Assembly (NCBI RefSeq): GCF_048403405.1
Contig: NZ_CP183129.1
Length of the DNA stretch: 64,000 nt
Source of the DNA: Escherichia coli
GTDB taxonomy: Bacteria > Pseudomonadota > Gammaproteobacteria > Enterobacterales > Enterobacteriaceae
Strand: one strand, 5' to 3'
Below the pieces are notes generated by a model. That model saw nothing but the letters and a program-made list of their open reading frames with translations, did not search any database and was not told the origin of the DNA. A program made the position numbers and the translations under genes. Positions within the stretch are counted from its first letter, which is position 1. Each line of letters opens with the position of its first letter. Shown one piece after another: positions 4,743-54,189 of this stretch.

Positions 4743-5605
<863 letters not shown>

Positions 5606-5635
5606 TTAGCGGGGGAAGCAAAATGCCTCCCCCGG

Positions 5636-5653
5636 TGTACTCGCTAAAGAGTA
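5636..5653. promoter_or_regulatory. trp operator palindrome in trpR promoter (autoregulation site)
   Basis: GTACTCGCTAAAGAGTAC dyad 46-63 bp upstream of trpR start; matches the known TrpR operator half-sites GTACT/AGTAC. Confidence 0.75.
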
Positions 5654-5678
5654 CGATAGCATATCATAAACGTGCGGA

Positions 5679-7616
5679 TCAGTAACGACGTCCCCATTCC
5701 GTGGCGCTCATCAATGTCGGTTTATCCCCCATGAAATAGCGGTAGTAAGCGTCATAAGCCAGCACGTTCTTCACATAACCGCGCGTCTCGGAAAACGGAA
5801 TACTCTCGACGAATGCCACTGCGTCGATACGCCCGGCGCTGTTGCCAAGCCAGGTTCGCACCCGGCCTGGTCCGGCGTTATAAGCTGCTGAGGAGAAAAT
5901 ACGGTTATTACCAAACTGCTGATAAACATATTGCAGGTAACTGGTGCCAATGTTGATGTTCGTTTCCGGATCCAGCAATTGTCCTGGGCTGCTATAACCA
6001 GGAATAGAGAACATCTTCACCGTATGGGTCGCCGTGCCCGGCATAATCTGCATCAGGCCGCTGGCCCCTACCGGTGATTTCACTTTCGGATTCCAGGCGC
6101 TCTCCTGACGGGCAATCGCCATCGCATAGCTTTGCGGGATCTCCTTCCCACTGGTGTAACGTTTGAAAAGATCGTTGTAAGCCAGCGGGAATCGCTCTTC
6201 CAGATGATCCCATAGCTTCCCGGCGATCGTTGCCTGAACGCTAAGATCCCACCATTGGTTATTGAAAGCATACCGAGCCAGTTGCGCCTGCTCTGTTTTT
6301 GACTTGCTCTTCACCAGATTGGCCCACTCGCTACGCGCGGTGTTATCGAGATTCCAGTACATCAACTCGCGCACGCGCGCCATCTCCGGCCCCTGAGTCA
6401 GCGTGCTGTCAACATTCTGCGGCGCTTTATCAATCTTCAGCTCATACTCTTCTCCGATGCGTTGTGCTGCAACCATTGGGTAGAAACCACGCTGTTGCAT
6501 GAGTTGATGCAAAATCTCTTTCGCTTCAGCTTCACGTCCGCGTTCCAGCAGTAAATCCGCCTGCCAGTAACGCCATTCATCTTTCTCTTTCGCCTCCATC
6601 GGCAAACGCGCCAGCCAGGTATTCAGGCCGCGACGATCGCCGGTGCCAAGCGCCATTCGCACACGGCGTTCAATAAGCGAAGTAGATTGCGAACGCATAA
6701 TGGCGTCATCACGCCATTTCGCCTGCTCGTCGGTGACATCGTTGCCCATCAAACGCCAGGCGACGATATCGCGCAGCTCCTGAATCTGATCTTCATTAAG
6801 CTGCTGCGCCTGGGCAAGCGACGGGATCATCAGCCGTGCATTTTCAGCATCCTGCCGCGCCACACTGGCAAACGCCACCGCCGCCATTTGACGGGTAAAA
6901 TCGGTCGCTCCGGTTGTACGCGCGAAGGTCAGTACCGTATTAGGGTTGTTCGCCAGTGAAATGATTGCCGAGGCGATAGTCTGGTAATCGGCAGGCATCT
7001 GCCCTGCCAGCACTGTTACCAGGCCAGTGTTACCCGCTTTCATCGCCAGACGGATACGCTCTAAATACGCCAGCGGATCTTGTTTACCTGACGCACGCCA
7101 GACGCTAAATAACTTGTCACAGGCGTTAGGCTGGCTCTTGCCGGTTAGCCACAGCTCTTTCGCCCCTTGCCAGGCTTCTTCACTCTGCCCGGTGTTCCAT
7201 TTCGCATAGTAGTAATTACATTGCGCTTCGGTAGTTCCGGGCTTTTCCGGGCTAAAGGCTAACAAGCCACGCCAGTCTTCACGCCGCGCCAGTTCATTGA
7301 CGAAACGAGATTGCAGCGTGCGAGCGGGAGGAAGCGTGGGGTTAGCGCGAACAAAGTTAGTGACCGTCACCGCCGGTTGATTCATCAGGTCATCGGTGAT
7401 CTGACGGTATTCCAGGTAGGGATAAAGCGGATAATCCTTCAGTCCAGGCATCATTTGTTCGACCACATCCATTTGTCGATTATCCCAGGCCTGCTTGATT
7501 TGGGCGTAGCGGCTACGCTGCTCATCCAGTGAGTCGGCTCGCGCCACGCTGCTGACCGTCAGCAGACAGACACCGGCAGCCAACAGCCGCCAGGTAACTT
7601 GTTTGGCTTTTTCCAC
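5679..7616 (-). CDS. slt: soluble lytic murein transglycosylase Slt70
   Basis: 645 aa from a GTG start (ORF track extends to 7646); signal peptide then superhelical and lysozyme-like domains. Confidence 0.92.
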   Translation of the reverse strand: MEKAKQVTWRLLAAGVCLLTVSSVARADSLDEQRSRYAQIKQAWDNRQMDVVEQMMPGLKDYPLYPYLEYRQITDDLMNQPAVTVTNFVRANPTLPPARTLQSRFVNELARREDWRGLLAFSPEKPGTTEAQCNYYYAKWNTGQSEEAWQGAKELWLTGKSQPNACDKLFSVWRASGKQDPLAYLERIRLAMKAGNTGLVTVLAGQMPADYQTIASAIISLANNPNTVLTFARTTGATDFTRQMAAVAFASVARQDAENARLMIPSLAQAQQLNEDQIQELRDIVAWRLMGNDVTDEQAKWRDDAIMRSQSTSLIERRVRMALGTGDRRGLNTWLARLPMEAKEKDEWRYWQADLLLERGREAEAKEILHQLMQQRGFYPMVAAQRIGEEYELKIDKAPQNVDSTLTQGPEMARVRELMYWNLDNTARSEWANLVKSKSKTEQAQLARYAFNNQWWDLSVQATIAGKLWDHLEERFPLAYNDLFKRYTSGKEIPQSYAMAIARQESAWNPKVKSPVGASGLMQIMPGTATHTVKMFSIPGYSSPGQLLDPETNINIGTSYLQYVYQQFGNNRIFSSAAYNAGPGRVRTWLGNSAGRIDAVAFVESIPFSETRGYVKNVLAYDAYYRYFMGDKPTLMSATEWGRRY

Positions 7617-7826
7617 AAGCGCATCCTCTAAGTGTAAATACATCAATGCAGCGTCATGCCGCGTAATAGATTTATGCTAACCAGTCATTGCCGTTTACGC
7701 CACGTTACGGACACTTTTTTACTTTTACTGCGAGGGTGATCGACCGGCTGGGATTAGATAAGGAAACAGGCTACACTTCGCCTTTGAAAACTCATCATCA
7801 CGATAAACATAGAGGCGAAGTCCAAC

Positions 7827-9494
7827 GTGGCTCAATTCGTTTATACCATGCATCGTGTCGGCAAAGTTGTTCCGACGAAACGTCATATTTTGAAAAACAT
7901 CTCTCTGAGTTTCTTCCCTGGGGCAAAAATTGGTGTCCTGGGTCTGAACGGCGCGGGTAAGTCCACCCTGCTGCGCATTATGGCGGGCATTGATAAAGAC
8001 ATCGAAGGCGAAGCGCGTCCGCAACCGGATATCAAGATTGGTTATCTGCCGCAGGAACCGCAGCTGAACCCGGAACACACCGTGCGTGAGTCCATTGAAG
8101 AAGCGGTTTCTGAAGTGGTTAACGCCCTGAAACGCCTGGATGAAGTGTATGCGCTGTACGCCGATCCGGATGCCGATTTTGACAAGCTGGCCGCTGAACA
8201 AGGCCGTCTGGAAGAGATCATTCAGGCTCACGACGGTCACAACCTGAACGTTCAGCTGGAGCGTGCGGCGGATGCGCTGCGTCTGCCGGACTGGGACGCG
8301 AAAATCGCTAACCTCTCCGGTGGTGAGCGTCGTCGCGTGGCGTTGTGCCGCCTGCTGCTGGAAAAACCAGACATGCTGCTGCTCGACGAACCGACGAACC
8401 ACCTGGATGCCGAATCCGTGGCGTGGCTGGAACGCTTCCTGCACGACTTCGAAGGCACCGTTGTGGCGATTACCCACGACCGTTACTTCCTCGATAACGT
8501 GGCGGGCTGGATCCTCGAACTGGACCGTGGTGAAGGTATTCCGTGGGAAGGTAACTACTCCTCCTGGCTGGAGCAGAAAGATCAACGTCTGGCGCAGGAA
8601 GCTTCACAAGAAGCTGCGCGTCGTAAGTCGATTGAGAAAGAGCTGGAGTGGGTACGTCAGGGGACTAAAGGCCGTCAGTCGAAAGGTAAAGCACGTCTGG
8701 CGCGTTTTGAAGAGCTGAACAGCACCGAATATCAGAAACGTAACGAAACCAACGAACTGTTTATTCCACCGGGACCGCGTCTTGGCGATAAAGTGCTGGA
8801 AGTCAACAACCTGCGTAAATCCTACGGTGATCGCCTGCTGATTGATGACCTGAGCTTCTCGATCCCGAAAGGGGCAATCGTCGGGATCATCGGTCCGAAC
8901 GGCGCGGGTAAATCGACCCTGTTCCGTATGATCTCTGGTCAGGAACAGCCGGACAGTGGCACCATCACTTTAGGTGAAACGGTGAAACTGGCATCGGTTG
9001 ATCAGTTCCGTGACTCAATGGATAACAGCAAAACCGTTTGGGAAGAAGTTTCCGGCGGGCTGGATATCATGAAAATCGGCAACACCGAGATGCCAAGCCG
9101 CGCCTACGTTGGCCGCTTTAACTTTAAAGGGGTTGATCAGGGTAAACGCGTTGGTGAACTCTCCGGCGGTGAGCGCGGTCGTCTGCATCTGGCGAAGCTG
9201 CTGCAAGTTGGCGGCAACATGCTGCTGCTCGACGAACCAACCAACGACCTGGATATCGAAACCCTGCGCGCGCTGGAAAACGCCCTGCTGGAGTTCCCGG
9301 GCTGCGCGATGGTTATCTCGCACGACCGTTGGTTCCTCGACCGTATCGCCACGCACATCCTGGACTACCAGGATGAAGGTAAAGTTGAGTTCTTCGAAGG
9401 TAACTTTACCGAGTACGAAGAGTACAAGAAACGTACGCTGGGCGCAGACGCGCTGGAGCCGAAGCGTATCAAGTACAAGCGTATTGCGAAGTAA
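7827..9494 (+). CDS. ettA: energy-dependent translational throttle EttA (ABC-F ATPase)
   Basis: 555 aa with two ABC cassettes (Walker A GLNGAGKST and GPNGAGKST, two LSGGER signatures). Confidence 0.95.
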   Translation: MAQFVYTMHRVGKVVPTKRHILKNISLSFFPGAKIGVLGLNGAGKSTLLRIMAGIDKDIEGEARPQPDIKIGYLPQEPQLNPEHTVRESIEEAVSEVVNALKRLDEVYALYADPDADFDKLAAEQGRLEEIIQAHDGHNLNVQLERAADALRLPDWDAKIANLSGGERRRVALCRLLLEKPDMLLLDEPTNHLDAESVAWLERFLHDFEGTVVAITHDRYFLDNVAGWILELDRGEGIPWEGNYSSWLEQKDQRLAQEASQEAARRKSIEKELEWVRQGTKGRQSKGKARLARFEELNSTEYQKRNETNELFIPPGPRLGDKVLEVNNLRKSYGDRLLIDDLSFSIPKGAIVGIIGPNGAGKSTLFRMISGQEQPDSGTITLGETVKLASVDQFRDSMDNSKTVWEEVSGGLDIMKIGNTEMPSRAYVGRFNFKGVDQGKRVGELSGGERGRLHLAKLLQVGGNMLLLDEPTNDLDIETLRALENALLEFPGCAMVISHDRWFLDRIATHILDYQDEGKVEFFEGNFTEYEEYKKRTLGADALEPKRIKYKRIAK

Positions 9495-9503
9495 TGCGTA
9501 AAA

Positions 9504-9538
9504 TGCCGGATGCGGCGCGCCAGCATCGCATCCGGTAT
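9504..9538. repeat. REP (repetitive extragenic palindromic) element
   Basis: GCCGGATGCGGCGCGCCAGCATCGCATCCGGT, typical E. coli REP consensus, downstream of ettA. Confidence 0.8.
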
Positions 9539-9617
9539 TAGTTAAATGATTAGTCCCCGGAAAAGGCAGAATTTTCTTTAAGCGTATTAGCTCAGATGCG
9601 GACTGACATCTCAAATC

Positions 9618-9650
9618 AAGCGGGAACTCATGGTTCCCGCTTAACGTTTT
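9618..9650. terminator. perfect hairpin between convergent ettA and the LysR-family gene
   Basis: AAGCGGGAAC-tcatg-GTTCCCGCTT followed by AACGTTTT. Confidence 0.55.
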
Positions 9651-10536
9651 ATTCACCGCGCAGGATCTGGCGGAAATGGGAAACCAGCGGACGTTGGTTG
9701 GCTTTATGCCAGGCTGCCCATAATTGCGTTGAATAATTCATCCACGGCAATTCACGTAATACCACCCCTTCCGGCGCATTATGACGAAGACTATGTTGAA
9801 TTAAGGCCAGACCTAATCCCGCAGCGACCAGACCTAATGCCGTGAGGGGTTCACCAGCTTCCAGGCGAATATCAGGATTAAACCCGGCATTAACACAGGC
9901 GGCGACAAAATGATCGCGAGAATGCGCATCGTCGTTATGAATCACCGCAATCCACTGCTCATCGCCAAGTTGTGACGCGACAAGGTTTTCCTCCTGCGCC
10001 AGAGGATGATTTTGCGGTAAGGCCAACAACATTCGATCATCCAGAACCTGAATATATTCCAGATCCTGCTCGCTGTCGGTGGGCGGCGTATCGACCAGAG
10101 AAAAATCGAGACTGCGCTGGCGAAGGCCTTCAATCTGGGTCGCCGGTGGTTGGCTGTAAAGTGCGATATGCACATTCGGACGCGATACACGTAACGTACG
10201 TAGCGCCGTAGAAAGCACACCGGAATGCATGGCGTTTTCGATATAGCCAATACACAAGCCACCATCTTCCCCCCGTCCCAGGCGTTTGCCTAACGACTCC
10301 AGGCGGTTGGCGTGTGTCAGCAACGAACGTGTTTCGGCAAGGAATGTCTGTCCATCAGCGGTCAGGCGAATGCGCTGCTGATTACGCTCAAACAGCGTCA
10401 GCCCCAGCCGTTCTTCCAGTTGCGCAATCTGGCGGCTCAGCGGTGATTGCGAGATATGTAATCGCTCGGCTGCGCGTCCCACGTGCTCTTCTTCTGCGAC
10501 CACCACGAAGTACTTCAGTTGGCGTAAATCAATCAT
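9649..10536 (-). CDS. LysR-family transcriptional regulator (island gene)
   Basis: N-terminal HTH MIDLRQLKYFVVVAEEEHVGRAAERLHISQSPLSRQI; ORF track start 10665 is likely an upstream extension; divergent from the AKR gene. Confidence 0.8.
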   Translation of the reverse strand: MIDLRQLKYFVVVAEEEHVGRAAERLHISQSPLSRQIAQLEERLGLTLFERNQQRIRLTADGQTFLAETRSLLTHANRLESLGKRLGRGEDGGLCIGYIENAMHSGVLSTALRTLRVSRPNVHIALYSQPPATQIEGLRQRSLDFSLVDTPPTDSEQDLEYIQVLDDRMLLALPQNHPLAQEENLVASQLGDEQWIAVIHNDDAHSRDHFVAACVNAGFNPDIRLEAGEPLTALGLVAAGLGLALIQHSLRHNAPEGVVLRELPWMNYSTQLWAAWHKANQRPLVSHFRQILRGE

Positions 10537-10668
10537 GTTAGACCTCAAAGGACTTAAGTCAGACAAATTATGTCCTATCAAGTCATAACCTCGCAAGGTA
10601 TTGTGATCCACGTCACAGGGCAATAGCAAAAAACGCCCGAACCCAAACCGAATAATTGAGGACATCTT

Positions 10669-11679
10669 ATGAGCATCAAAAATTTACTTCCCGGCAAAAT
10701 TGGCTTAGGCGGCGCACCACTCGGCAACATGTTCCGTGCCATTCCGGAAGAAGAGGCCCACGCCACCGTGAGCGAAGCCTGGAACCTGGGTGTGCGTTAC
10801 TTTGATACCGCGCCGCTGTACGGCTCTGGCCTTTCTGAAATCCGCATGGGTGAAGCGCTGTCTCAGTATCCACGCGATGAATACGTTCTGAGTAGCAAAG
10901 TCGGTCGCATCATGCTGGACGAAATGGAAGATCCGGCAAAACGGGATTTCGGTGAAAAAGGTGGCCTGTTCGAACACGGCCTGAAAAACAAAATTCTGAA
11001 TGACTACTCTGCTGACGCCACGCTGCGCTCGATTGAAGACAGCCTGAAACGCCTGAAAACAGATCGTCTGGATATTGTCTGGATCCACGACCCGGCGCAG
11101 GACTTCTACGGTGACAGCTGGCTGGAACAGTTCAACATAGCCCGTACCGGTGCGTTTCGTGCGCTGACGCGTTTGCGTGACGAAGGTGTGATTAAAGCCT
11201 GGGGACTGGGTGTGAATCGCGTCGAACCTTGCGAACTGACGCTGGCGCTGGACGAACCGAAGCCGGATGCGTTCCTGCTGGCGGGGCGTTATTCCCTGCT
11301 GGATCACGAACGTGCGCTGCAACGCCTGATGCCAGAAGCACTGGAACAGAACGTGGATATTGTTGTGGGCGGTCCGTACAGCTCTGGCGTACTGGCAGGC
11401 GGCGAGCACTTTGAATATCAGAAAGCTTCTGCGGCCATCCAGCAGAAAGTGGCGCAAATTAACGCCATTGCCACACGTTTCAATGTGAACGTTAAAGCAG
11501 CTGCGCTGCAGTTCGCGCTGGCAAACCCGGCCGTTGCAGCGGTTATTCCTGGCTCCAGCCGTCCTGGCCGTATGGCAGAAGATCTGGCTGCACTGAATGC
11601 GCCTGTTCCGGCTGAATTCTGGGCAGAAATGCGCCGTCAAAATCTGGTTGCGGAAAACGCTCCGCTGCCGACCCGTTAA
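10669..11679 (+). CDS. aldo-keto reductase family oxidoreductase
   Basis: 336 aa, AKR fold motifs (GGAPLGN, YFDTAPLYG, LDIVWIHDP). Confidence 0.8.
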   Translation: MSIKNLLPGKIGLGGAPLGNMFRAIPEEEAHATVSEAWNLGVRYFDTAPLYGSGLSEIRMGEALSQYPRDEYVLSSKVGRIMLDEMEDPAKRDFGEKGGLFEHGLKNKILNDYSADATLRSIEDSLKRLKTDRLDIVWIHDPAQDFYGDSWLEQFNIARTGAFRALTRLRDEGVIKAWGLGVNRVEPCELTLALDEPKPDAFLLAGRYSLLDHERALQRLMPEALEQNVDIVVGGPYSSGVLAGGEHFEYQKASAAIQQKVAQINAIATRFNVNVKAAALQFALANPAVAAVIPGSSRPGRMAEDLAALNAPVPAEFWAEMRRQNLVAENAPLPTR

Positions 11680-11698
11680 TCAACCTGGTGAGAAAACG

Positions 11699-12496
11699 AT
11701 GAAACTGGATCTGACAGGTAAAGTCGCGGTGGTCAGCGGCTCAACCTCCGGCATTGGGCAGGGTATCGCCGCCGGACTGGCAAAAGCAGGCGCAACGGTG
11801 GTTGTCGTCGGCCGTAAACAGCGCGGCGTTGATGATGCCATGGCTGCGATTGCGGCACAAACTCCCACGGCGTCACTGCGTGGCGTGGTGGCCGATCTCA
11901 GCACCGAAGACGGCGTGGCTGCGCTGATCGCTGCAGTCCCAACGGCTGATGTGCTGGTCAATAATCTGGGCATTTTTAACGATAAAGATTTCTTTAGCGT
12001 TCCGGATGATGAGTGGATGCACTTCTATAACGTCAACGTCCTCTCCGGCGTTCGTCTGGCGCGTCACTATGCGCCAGGCATGACGGAACAGGGCTGGGGG
12101 CGGATTATCTTTGTCTCGTCCGAATCCGGCGTGGCAATTCCTGGCGACATGATCAACTACGGCGTCACCAAAGCTGCGAATCTGGCGGTCTCTCATGGTC
12201 TGGCGAAACGACTGGCGGGGACCGGTGTGACCGTCAACGCCATTCTGCCAGGGCCAACCTTTACCGATGGCCTGAAAGAGATGCTGGCGGATGCCGCTGC
12301 ACAATCGGGACGCAGTGCGCGTGAACAGGCCGATGAGTTTGTTAAAACCTCACGTCCGAGCTCCATCATCCAGCGTGCGGCAGAGGTGGAAGAAGTGGCG
12401 AATCTGGCGGTTTATCTCGCGTCACCGCTTTCCTCGGCAACCACAGGGGCAGCCCTGCGCGTCGATGGCGGCGTCGTCGACACCCTGACAATGTAA
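11699..12496 (+). CDS. short-chain dehydrogenase/reductase (SDR)
   Basis: Rossmann motif VVSGSTSGIGQG near N-terminus and NNLGI motif; start chosen at MKLDLTGK (ORF track extends upstream to 11597). Confidence 0.8.
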   Translation: MKLDLTGKVAVVSGSTSGIGQGIAAGLAKAGATVVVVGRKQRGVDDAMAAIAAQTPTASLRGVVADLSTEDGVAALIAAVPTADVLVNNLGIFNDKDFFSVPDDEWMHFYNVNVLSGVRLARHYAPGMTEQGWGRIIFVSSESGVAIPGDMINYGVTKAANLAVSHGLAKRLAGTGVTVNAILPGPTFTDGLKEMLADAAAQSGRSAREQADEFVKTSRPSSIIQRAAEVEEVANLAVYLASPLSSATTGAALRVDGGVVDTLTM

Positions 12497-12521
12497 CCCT
12501 ATAAATTAAGAGAAAATTATC

Positions 12522-12938
12522 ATGGCTAAAACAACTGTATCGATCGAAATTCCGGCTTCTGCCGACGCCGTATGGCAATTGATGGGCGGCTTTGATGCGC
12601 TGCCTGACTGGCTGCCGTTCATCCCGAAAAGCGTAGTGACAGAAGGAGGTCGCGTTCGTTCGCTGACAACCTCTGACGGCGGCACTGTGGTTGAACGTCT
12701 GGAAGCGTTTGATAACCGTCAACGCAGTTATACCTATTCCATTATTCAGGCACCGTTCCCGGTGGTGGATTACCTCTCCACCATTACCGTTCATGAAACC
12801 GCCGACAGCCAGGTTTCCCGTGTGGAATGGTTCGGTGAATTCACCCCGGTGAATGTGACGAACGAAGAGGCCGAAGCGCTGTTTACCGGCATCTATCGGG
12901 ATGGTCTCAAGGCGCTAAAGGACAACTTTGTTGCCTGA
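12522..12938 (+). CDS. SRPBCC-superfamily (polyketide cyclase/Bet v1-like) small protein
   Basis: 138 aa, tight spacing after SDR gene suggests same operon; family assignment by recalled similarity only. Confidence 0.6.
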   Translation: MAKTTVSIEIPASADAVWQLMGGFDALPDWLPFIPKSVVTEGGRVRSLTTSDGGTVVERLEAFDNRQRSYTYSIIQAPFPVVDYLSTITVHETADSQVSRVEWFGEFTPVNVTNEEAEALFTGIYRDGLKALKDNFVA

Positions 12939-13095
12939 TGCGATCGACAGGCGTCGGAACGTCCGGCGTCTGATTATTAACAAAAACAGAATAGTCTATT
13001 GCCATTTGTATCATTTATGTTATCAGGCAGCAGGCGTATTCTCTCCCCATCGCGTTAATAAACGCCAAACAATTAAGACACTCTGGAATATAAAC

Positions 13096-13308
13096 ATGAA
13101 AACGATCATCGCAATTTTTACAGCTTCTCTTTTCTCTGTCGCGGCGTTTAACGCATCGGCACAAAGCGTGACAGCAACCGGTACAACACTGGATTCTGCG
13201 GAAGCGGTTATTGCGCAGAAAGCGAAAGAGATGAACGCCTCTGAATATAAAATTACCAGCGCTCGCATGGGCAATACCGTCACCATGAGCGCCGAACTGT
13301 ACAAATAA
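13096..13308 (+). CDS. small secreted DUF1471 (YhcN/BhsA-like) stress protein
   Basis: 70 aa from MKTIIAIFTASLFSVAAFNASA signal peptide; C-terminal ...KITSARMGNTVTMSAELYK typical of the family. Confidence 0.65.
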   Translation: MKTIIAIFTASLFSVAAFNASAQSVTATGTTLDSAEAVIAQKAKEMNASEYKITSARMGNTVTMSAELYK

Positions 13309-13356
13309 CCGCGCGAGGGACCCATTACGTAATTTGCTAAATATGCGCTGAATGCG

Positions 13357-13548
13357 TTGCCATTAAAAAACCGTATTGTAATGCCACCGATGACACGTTC
13401 TCGCGCGGGTGCGGGTGACGTTGCGATTGACATGATGGCGGAGTATTACGCGCAGCGCGCCAGTGCAGGACTTATCATCAGCGAAGGTACGCAAATCAGC
13501 AGAAGCGCTGCGCATAATTTTCCATGGCACGCTGATTTACTCCGGTAA
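13357..13548 (+). pseudogene. remnant of an Old-Yellow-Enzyme type NADH:flavin oxidoreductase (N-terminal ~60 codons only)
   Basis: LKNRIVMPPMTRSRAGAGDVAIDMMAEYYAQRASAGLIISEGTQIS matches OYE/NemA N-terminus; ORF truncates after 63 aa. Confidence 0.6.
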
Positions 13549-13774
13549 ATACACCAAAGCGCGCGCCGAAGCGGACTGTCAGATTTGATTGCATTTTGGC
13601 TACGCAACCGGTCAGTTGGAGTATGAAGTTGCTCACGAATAGCCTTAGCATCCGCAATTTCGTAGTGGGTCACCCGTGCAGGTTCTTTCTAATCTCAACA
13701 GCCTCTTCCAGAGAGGTTTTCAACTCATCAAAAAAACTCAATTTATACCTCGCCTTTGAGCCGTTTCGTCACGG

Positions 13775-15007
13775 TTATCTTTGCTCCCCCATCATCTCCC
13801 GCACAAGTTCCACGCAGCGCAGGAAACGGCTGTCGTAATCGTCCTCTTCAACCCGCACGAATTCGATATTGTTCTCTTCCAGCATCTCCACCAGCAAGTT
13901 CTGGAACTCTTTGCGATCCACCGAACTGCCGAGGCTGCGTAAACCATCCGCCACCCAAGGGGTGTTGTTCTCCAGCAAGATAACCAGATCAAAACGGTAT
14001 TCATCGATCAGCGCCTGCACGAACGGATGCTCCCGCCCTTCGTACTTTTTGCAGAACGCCTGGGTAGTGACAAAATCAGTGTCGATAAACGCCACTTTAT
14101 TGGCGTATTTCACTGCAAAATCAATATATTGCGCGTGTCCTAGCGCGATTTTATCGTAGTCGGAATACTGCAATGCGATCTCATCACCGCCAAGGTGTGA
14201 AAAGACATAATCGCGACCATATTCCCACGCACTGGTGGTATTGAAGATATTGGCAAGTTTGTTTACCAGGGTGGATTTACCGCTCGACTCGCCGCCAAGG
14301 ATCGCCACGGTACGCACAAAGAACGGCTTCACTTCGGTGGGAATATATTCCCAGTAGCGGAACGGGTTTTCGCGGATCTGCGCACCGCTGATACTCATAA
14401 AGGTGCGTTTCGGATCGACCAGCACCGTTTCGATCCCCAGATGTTCCATATACTGTGGCGCATCGGCTTCTTCCGAGGTGTAGATCAGGTCCGGCTGGAT
14501 CCCCTTTTCAGCCATAAACTTTTTGATGCCGTTGCTCCATACATCCCAGCCGTGCGGATATGGCTCCATGCCCTCTTCATTGAAAGCATGAATACGGATA
14601 TTTTTCTGATATTTAAAGGTTTGCAATAACCAGCGCAGACGATCCGGCACGGTGGGCTGCTGCGACATGGCGCTGTCTTCAAACAACGCGCGGTCGCGGG
14701 TATCGTCAAACCCCATAATGATATGCAGCTCGTCAACCTGGCTACAGGCGCGCTGGATAAGGTAGATATGTCCGGTATGCAGCGGGTAGAACTTACCGAA
14801 TACCACACCGATCGTTTTCTTCTGCCGGGGAAACTCAAGCCCTAAAAAACGGTGCAACGCCTCCAGCTTTTGCGCGCTGGGGCTTTTAATTTTGGCATTC
14901 AGTAACTGGCTTAAATACCCTTTGGTCATACCGCTGGCATCAGCTACCTGCTGTAGCGTGCAGCCCTGTTGCTTGATGGCAGTTTTCAGGTAATCAAATG
15001 ACGACAT
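13775..15007 (-). CDS. nadR: bifunctional NMN adenylyltransferase / NAD regulator NadR
   Basis: 410 aa from MSSFDYLKTAIKQ; HTH, nucleotidyltransferase HTGH motif and Walker A GGESSGKST. Confidence 0.93.
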   Translation of the reverse strand: MSSFDYLKTAIKQQGCTLQQVADASGMTKGYLSQLLNAKIKSPSAQKLEALHRFLGLEFPRQKKTIGVVFGKFYPLHTGHIYLIQRACSQVDELHIIMGFDDTRDRALFEDSAMSQQPTVPDRLRWLLQTFKYQKNIRIHAFNEEGMEPYPHGWDVWSNGIKKFMAEKGIQPDLIYTSEEADAPQYMEHLGIETVLVDPKRTFMSISGAQIRENPFRYWEYIPTEVKPFFVRTVAILGGESSGKSTLVNKLANIFNTTSAWEYGRDYVFSHLGGDEIALQYSDYDKIALGHAQYIDFAVKYANKVAFIDTDFVTTQAFCKKYEGREHPFVQALIDEYRFDLVILLENNTPWVADGLRSLGSSVDRKEFQNLLVEMLEENNIEFVRVEEDDYDSRFLRCVELVREMMGEQR

Positions 15008-15027
15008 ATCTCCCTCCGTATTTCTCA

Positions 15028-16410
15028 TTATAAGTCGTCGAACACGCTAAGCGCGTCGGAGAGTTTTTTAACGCCAAAAATCTGCATCCCTTCCGGCGCT
15101 TTTTTCGGTACGTTAGCCGCCGGAACAATCGCCCGGCGAAAACCGTGTTTCGCCGCTTCAGAGATTCGTTCCTGACCGCTGGGCACCGGGCGGATCTCCC
15201 CTGCCAGCCCGACTTCACCAAACACCACCAGATCCTGCGGTAGCGGTCTGTCACGCAGGCTGGAAACCATCGCCAGCAGTAACGCTAAGTCGGCGCTGGT
15301 TTCGGTTACCTTCACGCCGCCGACCACGTTCACAAACACATCCTGATCGGCCATTTGCAGACCACCGTGACGGTGCAAGACAGCCAGCAGGATTGCCAGA
15401 CGGTTTTGTTCCAGCCCCACTGCCACGCGGCGCGGATTCGCCATCATCGAGTGATCGACCAGCGCCTGAATCTCCACCAGCAACGGACGCGTTCCTTCCC
15501 ACACCACCATCACGGAGCTGCCGGAGGTCACTTCATCTCCGCGACTTAAGAAAATTGCCGAAGGGTTGCTGACTTCACGCAGCCCCTGTTCGGTCATCGC
15601 GAAGACGCCCAGCTCATTCACCGCGCCGAAGCGGTTTTTATGGCTGCGCAAGGTGCGAAAACGGGAGTCGGCATCGCCATCCAAAAGCACCGAACAGTCG
15701 ATACAGTGTTCCAGCACTTTCGGGCCAGCCAGCGAACCATCTTTGGTTACGTGCCCCACCATGACAATCGCCACACCGCGCGTTTTGGCGAAGCGTGTCA
15801 AATAAGCCGCCGTTTCACGCACCTGCGCCACGCTGCCAGGCGATGATTGTACATCCGCCATATGCATCACCTGAATGGAGTCAATTACCATCAGCTTCGG
15901 TTGCTCTTCTTCGGCAATCAGGCAGATTTGCTCGATGCTGGTTTCCGACAACATATTGAGATTGTCAGTCGGCAGGCCAAGGCGATGAGCGCGCATTGCC
16001 ACCTGTTGCAGCGACTCTTCGCCGGTGACATACAGCGTTTTCATCTGCTGGGCCAGTTTGCACAGCGTTTGCAACAGCAGCGTGGATTTCCCCGCGCCTG
16101 GGTTACCGCCAATCAGAATGGCGCTTCCCGGCACCACCCCGCCGCCTAATACGCGGTCGAACTCTTTAAATCCGGTAGAAAAACGCGGCAGCTCCTCAAG
16201 GCTGATGTCGGAGAGTTTCTGGACTTTTGCCACTCCGGCGCTACCGGCATAGCCACTAAGACGCTCGTTACGCGCCACCGTTGGCGACGCAGCAAGACGC
16301 ACCTCGGTGATGGTGTTCCAGGCATGACAGGCACTGCACTGCCCCTGCCAGCGCGGATAATCGGCCCCGCATTCATTACAAACAAAGGCGCGTTTTGGAG
16401 CTTTTGCCAC
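15028..16410 (-). CDS. radA: DNA repair protein RadA (Sms)
   Basis: 460 aa from GTG start; C4 zinc finger, RecA-like Walker A GNPGAGKST, Lon-like C-terminus. Confidence 0.93.
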   Translation of the reverse strand: MAKAPKRAFVCNECGADYPRWQGQCSACHAWNTITEVRLAASPTVARNERLSGYAGSAGVAKVQKLSDISLEELPRFSTGFKEFDRVLGGGVVPGSAILIGGNPGAGKSTLLLQTLCKLAQQMKTLYVTGEESLQQVAMRAHRLGLPTDNLNMLSETSIEQICLIAEEEQPKLMVIDSIQVMHMADVQSSPGSVAQVRETAAYLTRFAKTRGVAIVMVGHVTKDGSLAGPKVLEHCIDCSVLLDGDADSRFRTLRSHKNRFGAVNELGVFAMTEQGLREVSNPSAIFLSRGDEVTSGSSVMVVWEGTRPLLVEIQALVDHSMMANPRRVAVGLEQNRLAILLAVLHRHGGLQMADQDVFVNVVGGVKVTETSADLALLLAMVSSLRDRPLPQDLVVFGEVGLAGEIRPVPSGQERISEAAKHGFRRAIVPAANVPKKAPEGMQIFGVKKLSDALSVFDDL

Positions 16411-16458
16411 GGTGTACCTCGTTAATGCTGTGCCGCCCGCAGGATGACGGGCAGGCAA

Positions 16459-17427
16459 TTACTTCTGATTCAGGCTGCCAGAGAGGATGCAGAATACCCC
16501 CATCAGGTCAGCGTGACGGATGGTGACTTCCGTCTTTTCATTCACTTTTGGCTTGGCATGGTAGGCAATCCCCAGCCCTGCCGCTTTGATCATCGGCAGG
16601 TCATTGGCTCCATCACCAATCGCCACGGTCTGCGCCAGCGGGATTTCATACTCCTGCGCGAGGCGAGTCAGAGTTTTCGCTTTGTACTGCGCGTCTACGA
16701 TGTCGCCGATCACATTGCCGGTAAATTTACCGTCCATGATCTCCAGTTCATTGGCTACCACGGCTGTCAGGCGCAGCTTGTCGCGCAGGTATTCAGCAAA
16801 GAAAGTAAAGCCGCCGGAGGCAATCGCCACTTTCCAGCCCAGCGTTTCCAGCTTGAGCACCAGTTGCGTTAAGCCTGGCATCAGCGGCAGATTTTCACGC
16901 ACCTGTTGCAGAATATTGGCGTCAGCGCCTTTCAGCGTCGCCACGCGGCTGCGCAGGCTGGCGGTAAAATCGAGTTCGCCGCGCATCGCCCGTTCGGTTA
17001 CCTCCGCCACCATCTCGCCCGTTCCGGCCAGTTTGGCAATTTCATCAATACATTCAATCTGGATGGCGGTGGAATCCATGTCCATCACCAGCAAACCCGG
17101 CGTGCGCAGGTGCGGGATTTTCCCCAGCGGCGCGACATCCAGCTGCGCTTCGTGGGCCAGGCGCGTAGCCCGCGCGGTGAGTGAACCTGCCAGACGAATC
17201 ACCTGATAATCTTCCACGCACCAGGCGGCAACAATCACCATCGCAGCGCCCAGTTTGCTCTGGTATTGGGTCAGACGTTGTTTATCCAGCCCACGACCAT
17301 ACAGCAGCCAGCCGCTACGACCTGCGTGGTAATCCAGTGGCATCACTTCATCACCACTTAATGAAAGAGGCAGACCCGGCCATAAAGAGACATCTTCAGG
17401 CAGGTCGCACCAGGTAATGTTAGGCAT
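16459..17427 (-). CDS. serB: phosphoserine phosphatase SerB
   Basis: 322 aa from MPNITWCDLPEDVSLW; HAD motif DMDSTAI; ORF track extends upstream into IS150-flanking DNA. Confidence 0.92.
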   Translation of the reverse strand: MPNITWCDLPEDVSLWPGLPLSLSGDEVMPLDYHAGRSGWLLYGRGLDKQRLTQYQSKLGAAMVIVAAWCVEDYQVIRLAGSLTARATRLAHEAQLDVAPLGKIPHLRTPGLLVMDMDSTAIQIECIDEIAKLAGTGEMVAEVTERAMRGELDFTASLRSRVATLKGADANILQQVRENLPLMPGLTQLVLKLETLGWKVAIASGGFTFFAEYLRDKLRLTAVVANELEIMDGKFTGNVIGDIVDAQYKAKTLTRLAQEYEIPLAQTVAIGDGANDLPMIKAAGLGIAYHAKPKVNEKTEVTIRHADLMGVFCILSGSLNQK

Positions 17428-17542
17428 TAAGGCTCCTGTAAAATCGTTCGAAGCAGGGAAAATAACGCATGAGGCTACCTTGTATCCATTGCTTCTGGCA
17501 ACATTAAGTCTCAAATTGTACTGACCCCAAAAAGTTGGACAG

Positions 17543-18394
17543 TTAAACACGAGGCATATAGGTCTGATTCCGATATTCAATTGGAGTCAGACCTTTTAAT
17601 TTCAGGCTAATTCTTCTGCTGTTGTAGTATTCAATATATTCCGTAACAGCATCCTTCAGTTCGCTTATATTACTGAACTCATCAAGATAAAAACACTCCG
17701 ACTTTAAGGTTCCAAAGAAACACTCCACCACAGCATTATCCAGACAATTGCCTTTTCTGGACATGCTTTGTTTAATACCATGTTCTTTAAGGATATTTTG
17801 ATATCTTCTCATACGATACTGCCATCCCTGGTCAGAGTGCAGAACAGGATGCTCGTGAGGATTAAGCTTTTTGAATGCCTGATCGAGCATATTCTCAACC
17901 ATGTTCATCACTGGTCTTTCCGAAAGGCTGTAAGAAATAACTTCGTTGTTGAAGAGATCTATTACTGGAGACAAATACAGCTTGCGCCCATTGACTACAA
18001 ATTCAGTAACATCGGTAACCCACTTCTCGTTTGGCCGCGTAGCCTTGAAATCTCTTTGGAGAACATTAGGGGCGGTTTGCCCTACCTCTCCTCTGTAAGA
18101 GCGGTATCGCTTGACCTTAATCGCTGCTTTAAGTGAGAGGGTTCCCATCAGGCGCTGAACAGCTTTATGGTTAATCTGTTTCCCTTCTCGATGAAGAGAC
18201 AGCGTTACCCTACGGTATCCGTATCGGCCTCTATTCTCGTGATAAATCTCACCAATACGCTTTTTAACGTCCGCATACTTGTCAGGCTTGCTGAGAGCCT
18301 TTAGATGGTAATAAAACGTACTGCGCGGTATCTCCGCAGCCCTGAGAAGCTCATCAAGAGGATAAAACTGCCTTAGCTCGTTGAGTACTTTTAC
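17543..18394 (-). CDS. insK: IS150 transposase orfB (InsK), expressed by -1 frameshift from orfA
   Basis: DDE-type integrase core (ORF track shows 201 aa C-terminal part from internal Met); upstream extent approximate. Confidence 0.8.
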
Positions 18395-18978: not shown

Positions 18979-19623
18979 ATGGCTCGCACAAAACTGAAAT
19001 TCCGGCTGCATCGGGCAGTGATTGTCCTGTTCTGTCTTGCCTTGTTAGTGGCGCTGATGCAGGGGGCGTCATGGTTTAGTCAAAACCACCAGCGTCAGCG
19101 TAATCCACAGCTGGAAGAACTGGCCCGCACCCTGGCGCGTCAGGTGACGCTGAACGTTGCACCGCTGATGCGTACCGACTCACCGGATGAAAAACGCATT
19201 CAGGCGATCCTCGATCAGTTAACGGATGAAAGCCGTATCCTCGACGCGGGCGTGTATGACGAACAAGGCGATCTTATCGCCCGTGCTGGCGAAAGCGTCG
19301 AAGTGCGCGACCGGTTGGCGCTCGACGGCAAAAAAGCGGGCGGCTATTTTAACCAGCAGATTGTCGAACCAATTGCGGGTAAAAACGGACCGCTCGGCTA
19401 TCTGCGCCTGACGCTCGACACCCATACGCTCGCTACCGAAGCCCAACAGGTGGATAACACCACTAACATTTTACGCCTGATGTTGCTGCTCTCACTGGCA
19501 ATCGGCGTAGTGCTGACCCGCACGCTGCTACAGGGTAAACGCACCCGCTGGCAGCAATCGCCCTTCCTGTTAACCGCCAGCAAACCGGTGCCGGAAGAGG
19601 AAGAAAGCGAGAAAAAAGAGTGA
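18979..19623 (+). CDS. ytjB: membrane protein YtjB (Smp)
   Basis: 214 aa from MARTKLKFRLHRAVIVLFCLALLVA; start lies 19 bp after the IS150 terminus. Confidence 0.88.
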   Translation: MARTKLKFRLHRAVIVLFCLALLVALMQGASWFSQNHQRQRNPQLEELARTLARQVTLNVAPLMRTDSPDEKRIQAILDQLTDESRILDAGVYDEQGDLIARAGESVEVRDRLALDGKKAGGYFNQQIVEPIAGKNGPLGYLRLTLDTHTLATEAQQVDNTTNILRLMLLLSLAIGVVLTRTLLQGKRTRWQQSPFLLTASKPVPEEEESEKKE

Positions 19624-43705: not shown

Positions 43706-44377
43706 TCAGCGACCAATCACCACAACCTGACCACCATCCCCTTCGTCTGCCGTGCTGATCTCCTGAGAAATCACGCGTGACCCCACGCGCATTTCACCGT
43801 ACAGAACGGGCAGAACATTCCCCTGGGCAACCATGTTATCCAGTGAGGAGAAATAGGTGTTCTGCTTACCGTTATCCGTTGTCTGTGTGCGGGGAGTTCT
43901 GGCTTTCGGTGCCAGCATCTGAGCCACACCACCGAGCACCATACTGGCACCGAGAGAAAACAGAATGCCGGTCATACCACCGGCACCAATGGCTGCCCCC
44001 CATGCTGCAAGGGTGGCTCCGGCGGTAAAGAATGATCCGGCAATGGCGGCTGCTCCCAGGACAATCTGGAATACACCACCTGACTTGGCCCCGGCGACTC
44101 TGGGAACAATATGAATCACAGCGCCATCAGGCAGAGTCTCATGTAACTGCGCCGTTAATCCGGACGTGCTGACGTCCCGCCCGGCAATCCGTACCTGATA
44201 CCAGCCGTCGCTCAGTTTCTGACGAAACGCCGGGAGCTGTGTGGCCAGTGCGCGGATGGCTTCAGCCCCCGTTTTCACACGAAGGTCGATGCGGCGGCCA
44301 AATCGTTGCAAATCCCCGTAAAGGCAGATGCGTGCCATTCCCGGTGACGCCAGAGGGAGTGTGTGCGTCGCTGCCAT
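43706..44377 (-). CDS. I: tail assembly protein I
   Basis: 223 aa MAATHTLPLASPGMARICLYGDLQRFGRRIDL... Confidence 0.9.
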   Translation of the reverse strand: MAATHTLPLASPGMARICLYGDLQRFGRRIDLRVKTGAEAIRALATQLPAFRQKLSDGWYQVRIAGRDVSTSGLTAQLHETLPDGAVIHIVPRVAGAKSGGVFQIVLGAAAIAGSFFTAGATLAAWGAAIGAGGMTGILFSLGASMVLGGVAQMLAPKARTPRTQTTDNGKQNTYFSSLDNMVAQGNVLPVLYGEMRVGSRVISQEISTADEGDGGQVVVIGR

Positions 44378-45018
44378 TTGTCGGTATACCTCTCTCGTTT
44401 GCTCAGTTGTTCAGGAATATGGTGCAGCAGCTCGCCGTCACCACAGTAAATGGCGGCATGATTCGGCACCGATGAACCAAAGCAGCACAGCAGCACGTCG
44501 CCAGGCTGCGCCTCTGTCAGTGCGACACGGTAAAAACCAGTCGCCTCCATATTGTCAAGATAGAGATTCTGACCGTTACGCCACCAGTCATCCCCGCGAT
44601 GAAAATCCGGCATCTCAATCCCCGCCAGATGATAAGCATCCCGGAACAGCGTGTAACAGTCCGTCACCCCGTGCTCAAAGCGACGCCCGGTGAGATGCGG
44701 CACACAGCGGAACTTGTGAATCGCCCCCCGGCAGACCAGCCACCACGGCAAATCACTCTGCACCTGCAGCCGCCGGTCAGCCTCACTCAGCCAGGGCAGA
44801 CCACCGGGATGACTGTGGACCAGTGCCACAATCTCACCCTGCATCTCTGCCTGCAGCCAGTCCTCCGGAGCCATCCGGAAATAATCCTCCGGCTCACCGG
44901 AGATATTCACGCAGGGAAAATATCTTTCCCCCTCCGGCGTGCTTACCACGAAGCCGCACGACTCCGCTGGCGCACATCGCCGGGCGTGCGCCAGAATCGC
45001 TGATTCTGTCTCTGTCAT
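44275..45018 (-). CDS. K: tail assembly protein K (NlpC/P60-JAB-like); start approximate
   Basis: MTETESAILAHARRCAPAESCGFVV...HSHPGG motif; overlaps I. Confidence 0.85.
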   Translation of the reverse strand: MTETESAILAHARRCAPAESCGFVVSTPEGERYFPCVNISGEPEDYFRMAPEDWLQAEMQGEIVALVHSHPGGLPWLSEADRRLQVQSDLPWWLVCRGAIHKFRCVPHLTGRRFEHGVTDCYTLFRDAYHLAGIEMPDFHRGDDWWRNGQNLYLDNMEATGFYRVALTEAQPGDVLLCCFGSSVPNHAAIYCGDGELLHHIPEQLSKRERYTDKWQRRTHSLWRHREWHASAFTGICNDLAAASTFV

Positions 45019-45022
45019 GGGA

Positions 45023-45721
45023 TTACTGCGAAAGTTTGTTAATGGAAAGGAAGCCGCCAAAGTTGCCGACGTTATTGCGGAACTTACAGCCACTCAGGCA
45101 TTTGCTGCATTTATCCTTCGTGATATCGAACGTCGGCTGGTCATATTCATCCGCGACCGCCGGACCGCTATAACCGCACTCATCACCGCGATAGGTCCAG
45201 GTGCAGGTGTTGGCCAGCATGATGCGCCCCGGAAAAACAGCACCATCCGTTTCCGTCGGCGTGGACAACACAAAGGAGGCACTGACCGCGCTCAGTTCGC
45301 TGCACTGCTCGACGCGCCAGCGGCTGATCACCTCCTGCTCCGGATCGGCATCGCTGTTTCCGTTGACGAAATTCACCGCATCCAGAAAACGGGCGTAAAC
45401 CTTACGCCTGACCACCGTTCCGCCGACCAGACTCTGCAGATCTTCCACCATCCCGGTGACCATACCGTACAGGTTAGAAACCGTCAGCGTGGGGCGCGTA
45501 CTGGCGCCTTTGCCATTCAGTTCAAAACCGCTCCCCTGAATGGGATACGGCTGATACTGTCGCCCCTGCCAGGTGACCGGCTCACCTTTTTCGTTCTGCT
45601 CATTACAGAAAAAATAACGCTCTCCACCGACCTCTGTCAGATCGATTTCCCAGAGCACCACGCTGGCCGACTGCTCCGCACGGGTGCATTCATTCAGTGT
45701 TTCCTGTTGGATATCCTGCAT
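45023..45721 (-). CDS. L: minor tail protein L
   Basis: 232 aa, lambda L-like, Cys-rich C-terminus. Confidence 0.9.
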   Translation of the reverse strand: MQDIQQETLNECTRAEQSASVVLWEIDLTEVGGERYFFCNEQNEKGEPVTWQGRQYQPYPIQGSGFELNGKGASTRPTLTVSNLYGMVTGMVEDLQSLVGGTVVRRKVYARFLDAVNFVNGNSDADPEQEVISRWRVEQCSELSAVSASFVLSTPTETDGAVFPGRIMLANTCTWTYRGDECGYSGPAVADEYDQPTFDITKDKCSKCLSGCKFRNNVGNFGGFLSINKLSQ

Positions 45722-46050
45722 CAGTTCACCACCTGTTCAAACTCTGCGCTGAACTCAACACGCAACATACTGACCCGCGACGACCATTTTGCGCAGGTCA
45801 CCTTTATCTGCCGGTAGCCATAAGGCGGCGTCCACAGAAAGGCCTTCCAGCCCCCGTGCTCAGCCAGAAACGACTCCAGCGCCGCGGCCTCCCAACGGGG
45901 AACAGAAAGCGTCACGCTGTACGTTTTCAGGTCAGTGTTCAGCCCGGCAGGCGCTCGCTGGGAATAGCCATCACCAAAGCGCACCTTTCTTACGGAAGGG
46001 GCCGAAGCCACATCCATACCGGGTTTCACTTTCCAGCGGAAGGTTTTCAT
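45721..46050 (-). CDS. M: minor tail protein M
   Basis: 109 aa MKTFRWKVKPGMDVASAPSVRKVRFGDGYSQRAPAGLN... Confidence 0.9.
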   Translation of the reverse strand: MKTFRWKVKPGMDVASAPSVRKVRFGDGYSQRAPAGLNTDLKTYSVTLSVPRWEAAALESFLAEHGGWKAFLWTPPYGYRQIKVTCAKWSSRVSMLRVEFSAEFEQVVN

Positions 46051-49035: not shown

Positions 49036-49439
49036 TTTCCCGCAGAAACAGGCTCTGCGGGCCCGGCGTCCTCTGTCTGTTCAGGGGCATTATTCACAAC
49101 AAACTCATACATACCGGACAGCCGGTACACCACGTTTTCAGCATGAGAAATTGCCTCTGTAGGCCAGGTGGTAAGCACTTCCTGCTCAATCTGTTTAACG
49201 GCTTCATTCATGGAAGGCATCTGCGTCTTCTGCGGATGGTTATGCCACAGGGACATCGCTACCACAAAAGCACCGGTTCTGATGGCGTCTTCCACAGTAA
49301 ACTTCCGGTTGCTGTCTGACTCCGCCTGTTCTGCCTGCCGTTTCATCAGGGCGAGATGCTCAATACGCTGCAGGGCTGACAGTTCAGAAAGCGTGACGGT
49401 CACACCGTTATGTTCAAATGATTCGGTTTTCAGGAACAT
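49017..49439 (-). CDS. G: tail assembly chaperone G
   Basis: 140 aa MFLKTESFEHNGVTVTLSELSALQRIEHLALM... Confidence 0.9.
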   Translation of the reverse strand: MFLKTESFEHNGVTVTLSELSALQRIEHLALMKRQAEQAESDSNRKFTVEDAIRTGAFVVAMSLWHNHPQKTQMPSMNEAVKQIEQEVLTTWPTEAISHAENVVYRLSGMYEFVVNNAPEQTEDAGPAEPVSAGKCSTVS

Positions 49440-49454
49440 CTCTGACTCTCCGGA

Positions 49455-50195: not shown

Positions 50196-50267
50196 ATCGT
50201 CCTCACATTTCAGGTGATGCTGCCAACTTACTGATTTAGTGTATGATGGTGTTTTTGAGGTGCTCCA

Positions 50268-51950: not shown

Positions 51951-51961
51951 ACATCCCCCTT

Positions 51962-52315: not shown

Positions 52316-52326
52316 AGCGCCTCCCG

Positions 52327-52725: not shown

Positions 52726-52766
52726 GGACTTCTCCACAGAGAGACAATGGCCCCGAAGGGCCATGA

Positions 52767-54180: not shown

Positions 54181-54189
54181 AACTGCCTC

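Follow-up and report, generated by a model that had tools for sequence, protein, structure and literature searches.

Genes and features between ettA and nadR

The window analyzed here is a 64-kb stretch of Escherichia coli DNA that matches the E. coli TUM14771 chromosome at 100% identity; all coordinates refer to the window unless a separate locus (L number) is given. It carries a strain-variable cassette between two core genes, ettA (7827–9494, plus strand) and nadR (13775–15007, minus strand), both placed from their open reading frames (ORFs) and the PGAP annotation of the identical record. The gap between these genes measures 4,280 bp in the window versus ~300 bp in K-12. The inserted DNA proper spans 9586–13626 (~4.0 kb) and consists, in order, of a divergently transcribed LysR-type regulator gene, the genes for an aldo-keto reductase (AKR), a short-chain dehydrogenase/reductase (SDR) and an SRPBCC protein, a DUF1471 gene, and gene remnants at the right end. 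An earlier note on this sequence had drawn the island at 9500–13770: the island does lie inside that interval, but the outer parts are fragments of the gene nadS and the ettA terminator. The ORFs and families of the five proteins agree with that note when compared with the ORF list, NCBIfam and PGAP.

Protein families were assigned from NCBIfam, searches against solved structures, and Pfam hits already computed for orthologs of 99% identity or more. The regulator (295 aa; 9649–10536, minus strand) combines a winged helix-turn-helix (HTH) with a substrate-binding domain, as expected of a LysR-type transcriptional regulator (PF00126 and PF03466 on orthologs), and its full-length NCBIfam matches to AlsR, HcaR, GltC, CatM and BenM all fall below the equivalog cut-offs. 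The AKR (336 aa; 10669–11679, plus strand) belongs to its superfamily by PF00248 on orthologs and by an Asp-Tyr-Lys-His tetrad, D46, Y51, K77 and H140 in the motifs FDTA, PLYG, SSKVG and WIHDP, the roles of the residues being assigned by motif context. Its nearest characterized relatives are plant L-galactose dehydrogenases, matched in the PDB at E-values of 2e-29 to 1e-23 over short stretches; AKR family nomenclature sets membership at ~40% identity or more. The SDR (265 aa; 11699–12496, plus strand) is of the classical type, with GxxxGxG at 14–20, NNLG at 88, S141 and Y154xxxK158, over 200 SDR family matches in NCBIfam, and PDB matches to 8g9m (E 5.5e-138) and 3t4x (E 7e-71). Two basic residues, R39 and K40, follow strand beta-2 and, on general knowledge of SDRs, suggest a preference for NADP(H). 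The small ligand-binding protein of the SRPBCC superfamily (Polyketide_cyc2; 138 aa; 12522–12938, plus strand) has no signal peptide, matches the structures 3cnw ('XoxI', E 4e-52) and 3f08 (E 1e-50) over its full length, and has relatives at 97% identity that carry PF10604.

A stem-loop at 12948–12972 (plus strand) is a weak candidate for the operon terminator, found by RNA folding and not called by a consensus terminator scan. It lies in the 157-bp gap between the SRPBCC and DUF1471 genes, which makes duf1471 probably a separate transcript. The DUF1471 protein itself (70 aa; 13096–13308, plus strand) is a small predicted periplasmic member of the YdgH-BhsA-McbA family, with weak NCBIfam matches to BhsA, RclB and YhcN, PF07338 on orthologs, the corresponding PGAP name, and a Sec signal peptide that by inspection ends in ASA before QS. 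None of the cassette proteins reaches an NCBIfam equivalog cut-off, and none of the five matches the anti-phage defence models of PADLOC.

The 132-bp divergent region between lysR and akr lies at 10537–10668, where the earlier note had put it. Alignment of 79 such intergenic regions, from Escherichia to Pseudomonas, reveals a conserved block of ~55 bp (~10540–10600) that makes up the lysR-proximal half, with the consensus AGACCT-N4-GGACTyAAGT-N7-ATTATGTC...GTC...GCAA. Its core motif, GGACTTAAGT-N7-ATTATGTC at 10550–10574, occurs once in the 64-kb window, with 0 occurrences expected by chance. A promoter scan places a sigma-70-like lysR promoter (TTGCGA-18-CATAAT, minus strand, 10596–10567) across the same block, and a ribosome-binding site for akr (GAGGA) lies near 10658. 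A divergent layout with an operator over the regulator's own promoter is usual for autoregulated LysR-type activators, and the block is a putative LysR operator to which the regulator would bind. The arrangement resembles the BenM/CatM-ben/cat, HcaR-hca and AlsR-alsSD units, in which the regulator is likewise divergent from the operon with a conserved block over its own promoter; unlike in those units, the regulator has no ortholog among them, its matches lying far below the equivalog cut-offs, and the enzymes are unrelated. Rfam gave no match at E up to 0.1.

Insertion into nadS and distribution among strains

Both flanks of the island carry pieces of one gene. On the left, the ettA terminator or REP-like hairpin (9502–9538, plus strand; fold of −27.5 kcal/mol), over which homology to K-12, SF-173 and SCU-124 extends, is followed by a 45-bp 3' fragment of nadS (9541–9585, minus strand), comprising approximately codons 79–94 with an 11-bp deletion. 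Alignment to the toxin–antitoxin (TA) locus of strain SF-173 identifies the fragment: window positions 9300–9581 align to L003 2401–2694, the nadS 3' end included, and tblastn pairs TIKENPAF with TLKENSAF at 9585–9562. On the right, a 115-bp 5' fragment (13627–13741, minus strand) retains codons 1 to ~42 with a 10-bp deletion and an ATG-to-TTG start change, and is annotated by PGAP as 'NadS family protein, frameshifted, incomplete'. It is followed by ~29 bp (13742–13771, minus strand) from the end of the RelE/ParE-type toxin gene, which lies ahead of nadS wherever the TA pair is intact; window positions 13627–13771 align to L003 2811–2965. Next to the left fragment, a filler of 32 bp at 9586–9617 matches neither the nadS-bearing loci nor the related cassettes of strain E69 and E. 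whittamii.

NadS matches its own family model and the HTH models of MqsA-type antitoxins. The intact type II module, RelE/ParE plus NadS, is absent from the window, where only the fragments are found, and is intact in SF-173 and 673 other genomes. The window has the same toxin-deletion junction as K-12, and the island takes the place of ~110 bp from the central part of a nadS that was full-length and orphaned. The HigBA-like RelE/ParE–NadS pair is the resident element that the island disrupted; the island itself encodes no TA function. Deletion of the toxin gene came first and left nadS, an antitoxin-like HTH gene, orphaned where the 3' ends of ettA and nadR converge; the cassette then inserted within it.

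To follow the island among strains, positions 9560–13560 were searched against 5,426 complete E. coli genomes. The island is present in 482 of them (8.9%), always as a single chromosomal copy at 98–100% identity and with coverage of at least 80%; none of the 482 carriers has it on a plasmid. Carriers include O145:H28 strains, while K-12 MG1655, BL21, O157:H7 EDL933 and most other E. coli lack it. The idea of a strain-variable island of ~4 kb is thus borne out by presence and absence, and the same genes at this site in K-12-like references, the observation that would have spoken against it, were not found. The accompanying statement that ettA and nadR are adjacent in K-12 is right in that no island separates them there, but a 55-codon nadS lies between the two genes, so they are not strictly neighbors. 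Other states of the site comprise the intact pair of RelE/ParE-type toxin and 94-aa NadS (674 of 5,426 genomes, such as SF-173), an orphan full-length nadS (as in IAI39 and strain 200112), and sites without nadS-like sequence (as in SCU-124; 464 genomes give no match at all). Among carriers, strain 405 has IS1397 between ettA and lysR (L086 4561–5909), and EC556 has an IS200C-family element within the island.

The K-12 gene was compared with its full-length counterpart. K-12 nadS (55 aa; L002 2620–2869) and the 94-aa NadS of SF-173 (L003 2651–2935) have the first 38 codons in common, and the remainder of the K-12 gene is 136 bp of unrelated sequence. The K-12 NadS that is expressed is therefore a truncated antitoxin-like stump without most of the HTH. 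For K-12 NadS, the literature offers expression evidence only (PMC12350097).

Strong purifying selection acts on the five intact genes. In comparisons of the window with other E. coli, E69, E. whittamii, Trabulsiella and Yokenella, the ratio of non-synonymous to synonymous divergence (dN/dS) is 0–0.22 for the LysR, AKR, SDR, SRPBCC and DUF1471 genes, and 0–0.05 for the regulator. Pairs of AKR alleles differ by 13–20 synonymous and 0–3 non-synonymous changes; against the E69 and E. whittamii alleles, all of the 18–20 differences are synonymous. Within E. coli the DUF1471 gene shows synonymous differences only. Synonymous divergence (dS) among the E. coli island alleles is 0.04–0.14, versus 0.07–0.19 for ettA and nadR; values so close to those of the flanking core genes, together with low dN/dS, mark the island as an old, functional resident and not a recent arrival. 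Base composition says little about origin: GC content is 0.536 in the island versus 0.524 in the window, and the comparison of GC and codon usage with the flanks that the earlier note had proposed yields barely any difference, GC3 also being only mildly offset.

Since nadS is split by the island yet intact in strains such as IAI39 and 200112, the island is an insertion and represents the derived state. The converse, a segment ancestral to E. coli and deleted from K-12 and most other lineages, would accommodate the near-equality of synonymous divergence in the island and the flanking genes, as well as the several deletion variants at the site. It would also demand a deletion that precisely restored nadS from its fragments on both sides, which is implausible; moreover, 91% of genomes have no island and other Escherichia lineages hold the cassette at different loci. 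We regard this explanation as largely refuted by the split gene and as very improbable.

Right-end remnants, cassette ends and mobility

Downstream of duf1471 lies a pseudogene of a NemA-like Old Yellow Enzyme (OYE) alkene reductase (~13327–13574, plus strand), recognized by an NCBIfam match to N-ethylmaleimide reductase and by comparison with the intact 365-aa gene of E69. Its N-terminal part ends at 13500 and is joined to a 74-bp internal piece (aa ~287–311) at 13501–13574, so that only aa ~1–60 and ~287–311 survive and the window holds no complete PF00724 ORF of ~365 aa. Relative to the intact gene, the lesions are a 686-bp internal deletion and a 3' truncation, identical in 482 of 482 E. 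coli carriers. An intact 365-aa gene follows duf1471 in 'E. coli' E69, Yokenella and Citrobacter, and the E. whittamii gene has suffered a different internal loss (aa 43–253).

A longer form of the island, exemplified by KE21 (L087), occurs in 20 of the 5,426 genomes. It has 726 bp more than the window form, including a gene for a 182-aa GNAT acetyltransferase (L087 10162–10710) between the OYE remnant and nadS. The window form is, as the two sequences read, derived from the KE21 form by a 726-bp deletion at CGAA microhomology, and positions 13567–13626 are the right-end residue of the longer form. We considered whether this GNAT is the one that follows the OYE gene in Citrobacter; the two are not homologous, and the identification was rejected. 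The stretch of 58–68 nt that separates the GNAT gene from the nadS 5' fragment (window 13569–13626; L087 10725–10792) is 82–85% identical to a repeat that GenBank AJ512685 annotates as the 'right inverted repeat' flanking cargo in the P2-EC67 phage Z-region; the comparison took in L104 1255–1345. Similar repeat copies, one to three each, are present in ~770 further E. coli genomes; in both of those examined, the repeat has int or ogr genes of P2 type and cargo genes as neighbors, within P2-type prophage remnants. The right junction of the island thus resembles P2-phage Z-region cargo cassettes, unlike which the island has one recognizable repeat only and no phage genes in or near it. The resemblance of the left junction (9586–9617) to the inverted-repeat core does not exceed that of shuffled controls, and the KE21 form has no inverted partner of the repeat.

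The claim that the island ends in gene remnants is confirmed by the OYE pseudogene, the lost GNAT cassette and the nadS fragment at the right end. Its description as partly decayed applies to that end alone (OYE, GNAT cassette and nadS), as the regulator, the three-gene operon and the DUF1471 gene are intact and under purifying selection. One could extend the erosion to the whole island and treat it as non-functional cargo, given two or three pseudogenes at the right end and insertion sequences in some carriers. The data already contradict this: none of the five ORFs is broken in the sampled carriers and their dN/dS is 0–0.2, at least 80% of the island is kept in 482 of 482 carriers, and the regulatory block is conserved. 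Of all the explanations considered, wholesale decay is the one we find hardest to credit. The right end has eroded in E. coli, but selection has held the regulator, the three-gene operon and duf1471 intact.

The cassette is found well beyond E. coli, with a patchy distribution in Enterobacterales and a wide one in fluorescent Pseudomonas. Among the best 80 related loci, the LysR/AKR/SDR/SRPBCC module is present in all that extend far enough, in Trabulsiella, Yokenella, Yersinia, Raoultella, Serratia, Providencia, Acinetobacter and many fluorescent Pseudomonas, and none of the 80 adjoins ettA or nadR. In Klebsiella pneumoniae the five-gene unit lies beside crl-frsA-gpt on thousands of contigs; Citrobacter has the cassette at another locus again, with OYE intact, and the Serratia locus also differs. 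The recurrent neighbors in Pseudomonas were considered as an extension of the operon and rejected, being a convergent two-component system and unrelated genes that reflect lineage synteny rather than a common function. Within Escherichia, cassettes 94–97.5% identical occupy three sites: nadS in E. coli, downstream of yhiN in E69 and similar strains, and glyS-ghrB in E. whittamii. All three share a left end at the base of a terminator-like hairpin just 3' of the lysR stop codon (window 9618–9642), and the two intact copies share a right end 5 bp past the OYE stop (L005 6951–11761; L006 6951–11116). The E69 cassette is followed by a large gene that matches the anti-phage protein ProA, an Hhe-like helicase (L005 12523–16971), which marks the yhiN-side site as another variable hotspot.

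Horizontal acquisition, as the earlier note had proposed, fits the presence of the cassette at three Escherichia loci and at other loci in Klebsiella, Citrobacter, Serratia and other genera; by this comparison the cassette is horizontally acquired and has been stably inherited since. The ancestral unit comprised six genes, lysR, akr, sdr, srpbcc, duf1471 and oye, to which one E. coli form adds the adjacent GNAT cassette. Signs of a mobile element are scarce. There is no tRNA gene at 5000–18000 of the window, no integrase, recombinase or transposase among the island ORFs, and no terminal direct or inverted repeat at the island ends. The only plasmid with the full module is a 331-kb Ewingella megaplasmid at 72% identity, and no enteric conjugative plasmid has it; no phage carries cassette genes, the sole phage match being the 58-nt repeat. 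By tRNA, integrase, repeats and deviant composition, the island is not a classical genomic island and is better termed an islet or cassette.

Proposed function and alternatives

The families of the proteins and the gene context are consistent with detoxification or catabolism of a carbonyl or aromatic compound, the role suggested in the earlier note. The account we favor, with a probability of about 0.55, is a horizontally acquired, nadS-sited cassette whose inducible enzymes use NADPH to reduce a hydrophobic carbonyl or electrophile bound by the SRPBCC protein. The LysR regulator would bind its operator in the 132-bp region and repress its own promoter, and a small-molecule inducer acting on it would activate akr-sdr-srpbcc. 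A hydrophobic aldehyde, ketone or quinone-like electrophile would then be reduced at its carbonyl groups by the AKR and the NADP(H)-type SDR. The SRPBCC protein, which invariably accompanies the AKR from phylum to phylum, may bind or present this ligand. The C=C bond of alpha,beta-unsaturated carbonyls would have been the target of the OYE that E. coli no longer has, and the DUF1471 protein is probably a co-carried periplasmic stress-family protein with its own transcript. A NemA-like ene-reductase and a periplasmic stress-family protein would have been added to the core unit in Enterobacterales.

Comparable units reside in the E. coli chromosome. The nemR-nemA-gloA and yqhC-yqhD-dkgA systems are stand-alone units against reactive carbonyls and electrophiles, in which a regulator gene lies beside genes for NAD(P)H-dependent reductases, among them the OYE NemA, an N-ethylmaleimide reductase, and the AKR DkgA. 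The ancestral cassette likewise has a NemA-like OYE and an AKR, but its regulator is of the LysR type, unlike the TetR- and AraC-type regulators of the nemR and yqhC units, it adds an SRPBCC protein and an SDR, and its AKR is only remotely related to DkgA, DkgB and YdjG in NCBIfam. The Bacillus cereus group SRPBCC proteins behind 3cnw and 3f08, and the SDRs 8g9m and 3t4x, are close in sequence, and Bacillus also has the AKR–SRPBCC pair; the molecule names of these four structures carry no function. The names 'XoxI' and 'MxaD' denote periplasmic accessory proteins of methanol dehydrogenase, unlike which the cassette SRPBCC protein has neither a signal peptide nor a methanol-dehydrogenase context.

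Several observations weigh against the favored account. With NCBIfam matches far below equivalog cut-offs, homology gives no basis for naming a substrate. E. coli and E. whittamii lost the OYE in separate events, and ene-reduction is therefore dispensable to whatever keeps the rest. No integrase, tRNA or flanking repeats are present to explain the insertion. We found no experimental or expression evidence for any cassette gene, and no literature on the module, on islands between ettA and nadR, or on 'XoxI' or D-threo-aldose dehydrogenase that bears on it. The nearest characterized AKRs are sugar (L-galactose) dehydrogenases, albeit at only E 2e-29, and the AKR is so well conserved, at 70–73% identity across phyla, as to suggest a specific conserved substrate rather than broad detoxification. 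A catabolic pathway, one of the two roles in the earlier note, is disfavored, as the cassette contains no transporter or downstream catabolic enzyme.

The conservation across phyla underlies the main alternative. The AKR and SRPBCC genes are adjacent in Bacillus, Streptomyces and Burkholderiales, also where the SDR is absent. A Bacillus megaplasmid (L102 2962–4406) carries an adjacent 336-aa AKR, 73% identical without gaps, and a 138-aa SRPBCC protein, 64% identical; a Streptomyces linear plasmid (L103 1903–4423) has LysR, AKR and SRPBCC genes, the AKR being 70% identical; and Burkholderiales replicons match over the LysR, AKR and SRPBCC portions, one annotated record listing these three and no SDR. 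What stays constant from phylum to phylum, in the loci compared, is the AKR plus the SRPBCC protein, usually with the LysR gene. Gap-free identity of 64–73% across phyla, unusually high for a putative detoxification enzyme, suggests inter-phylum transfer or tight functional constraint. The AKR and SRPBCC proteins, with the SDR optional, might accordingly serve one specific, widely met metabolite sensed by the same LysR regulator, in place of general detoxification of electrophiles; candidates would be a hydrophobic signal from plants or microbes, or a damage product of endogenous origin. That adjacency holds across phyla while SDR, DUF1471 and OYE vary, that the operator is conserved from enterics to Pseudomonas, and that the SRPBCC protein is distantly similar to the PYR/PYL hormone receptors all agree with such a system. 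The lack of a candidate ligand, a transporter or further pathway enzymes does not, and the Enterobacterales cassettes combine the pair with a NemA-like OYE and a DUF1471 protein of a stress family, a company that fits stress or detoxification. We consider a dedicated system unlikely, although it is the strongest competitor. A bolder variant holds that the AKR–SRPBCC pair is dedicated across phyla to one hydrophobic carbonyl metabolite and that in Escherichia the 4.8-kb cassette moves from one chromosomal site to another independently of a recombinase or in trans, perhaps by a mechanism akin to that of the inverted-repeat-bounded P2 cargo cassettes; one protein would catalyze while its partner may capture or deliver the metabolite, and the cassette ends would be precise. 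To this variant we assign a low probability.

The sugar-like affinities of the AKR lead to another alternative, a fragment of a sugar-oxidation pathway. The AKR would then act as an aldose 1-dehydrogenase akin to those for D-threo-aldose, L-fucose or L-galactose, with the SDR as a further dehydrogenase for a sugar or sugar acid. The plant L-galactose dehydrogenases are the best solved relatives of the AKR, source annotations name it 'D-threo-aldose 1-dehydrogenase', and the SDR resembles sorbose reductase and 3-hydroxybutyrate dehydrogenases at ~1e-34. The AKR similarity is nevertheless low (E 2e-29, in partial stretches), so that the plant L-galactose and bacterial D-threo-aldose 1-dehydrogenases, though the best characterized relatives and the source of the name, remain distant. 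Neither the cassette nor its immediate surroundings, across ~80 loci, include a transporter, lactonase, dehydratase, kinase or aldolase, the basic residues of the SDR are typical of NADPH-dependent reductive enzymes, and a hydrophobic-ligand protein such as SRPBCC has no obvious role with sugars. Sugar oxidation is accordingly a doubtful explanation, less probable than a dedicated system. The L-galactonate genes lgoD, lgoR and lgoT lie at ~43775–47426, some 30 kb from the AKR gene; no linkage was found, and their presence is probably a coincidence.

Two further features of the window were noted. A cluster for 4-hydroxyphenylacetate catabolism, hpaR through hpaBC, is annotated as complete at ~49258–60378; we take it to be absent from K-12 and another known strain-variable segment. 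A small HTH gene beside lplA (~19253–19515) is annotated as frameshifted in the window and is intact in O145:H28, strain 405 and IAI39.

The region between ettA and nadR offers a clean presence/absence marker. At least five states can be told apart: the TA pair intact, nadS full-length but orphaned, nadS truncated, the site empty, and the island in place with or without GNAT. The nadS recently annotated in K-12 is, on this comparison, the stump of a toxin–antitoxin pair. Small horizontally gained redox operons are common in E. coli, and the cassette is not surprising in kind; mildly unusual are its identical ends at three sites and the very conserved AKR–SRPBCC pair. The unit is kept under selection in E. 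coli, Klebsiella, Citrobacter and fluorescent Pseudomonas, and the identity of its inducer and substrate would give a function to proteins that are annotated by family name alone in many genomes.

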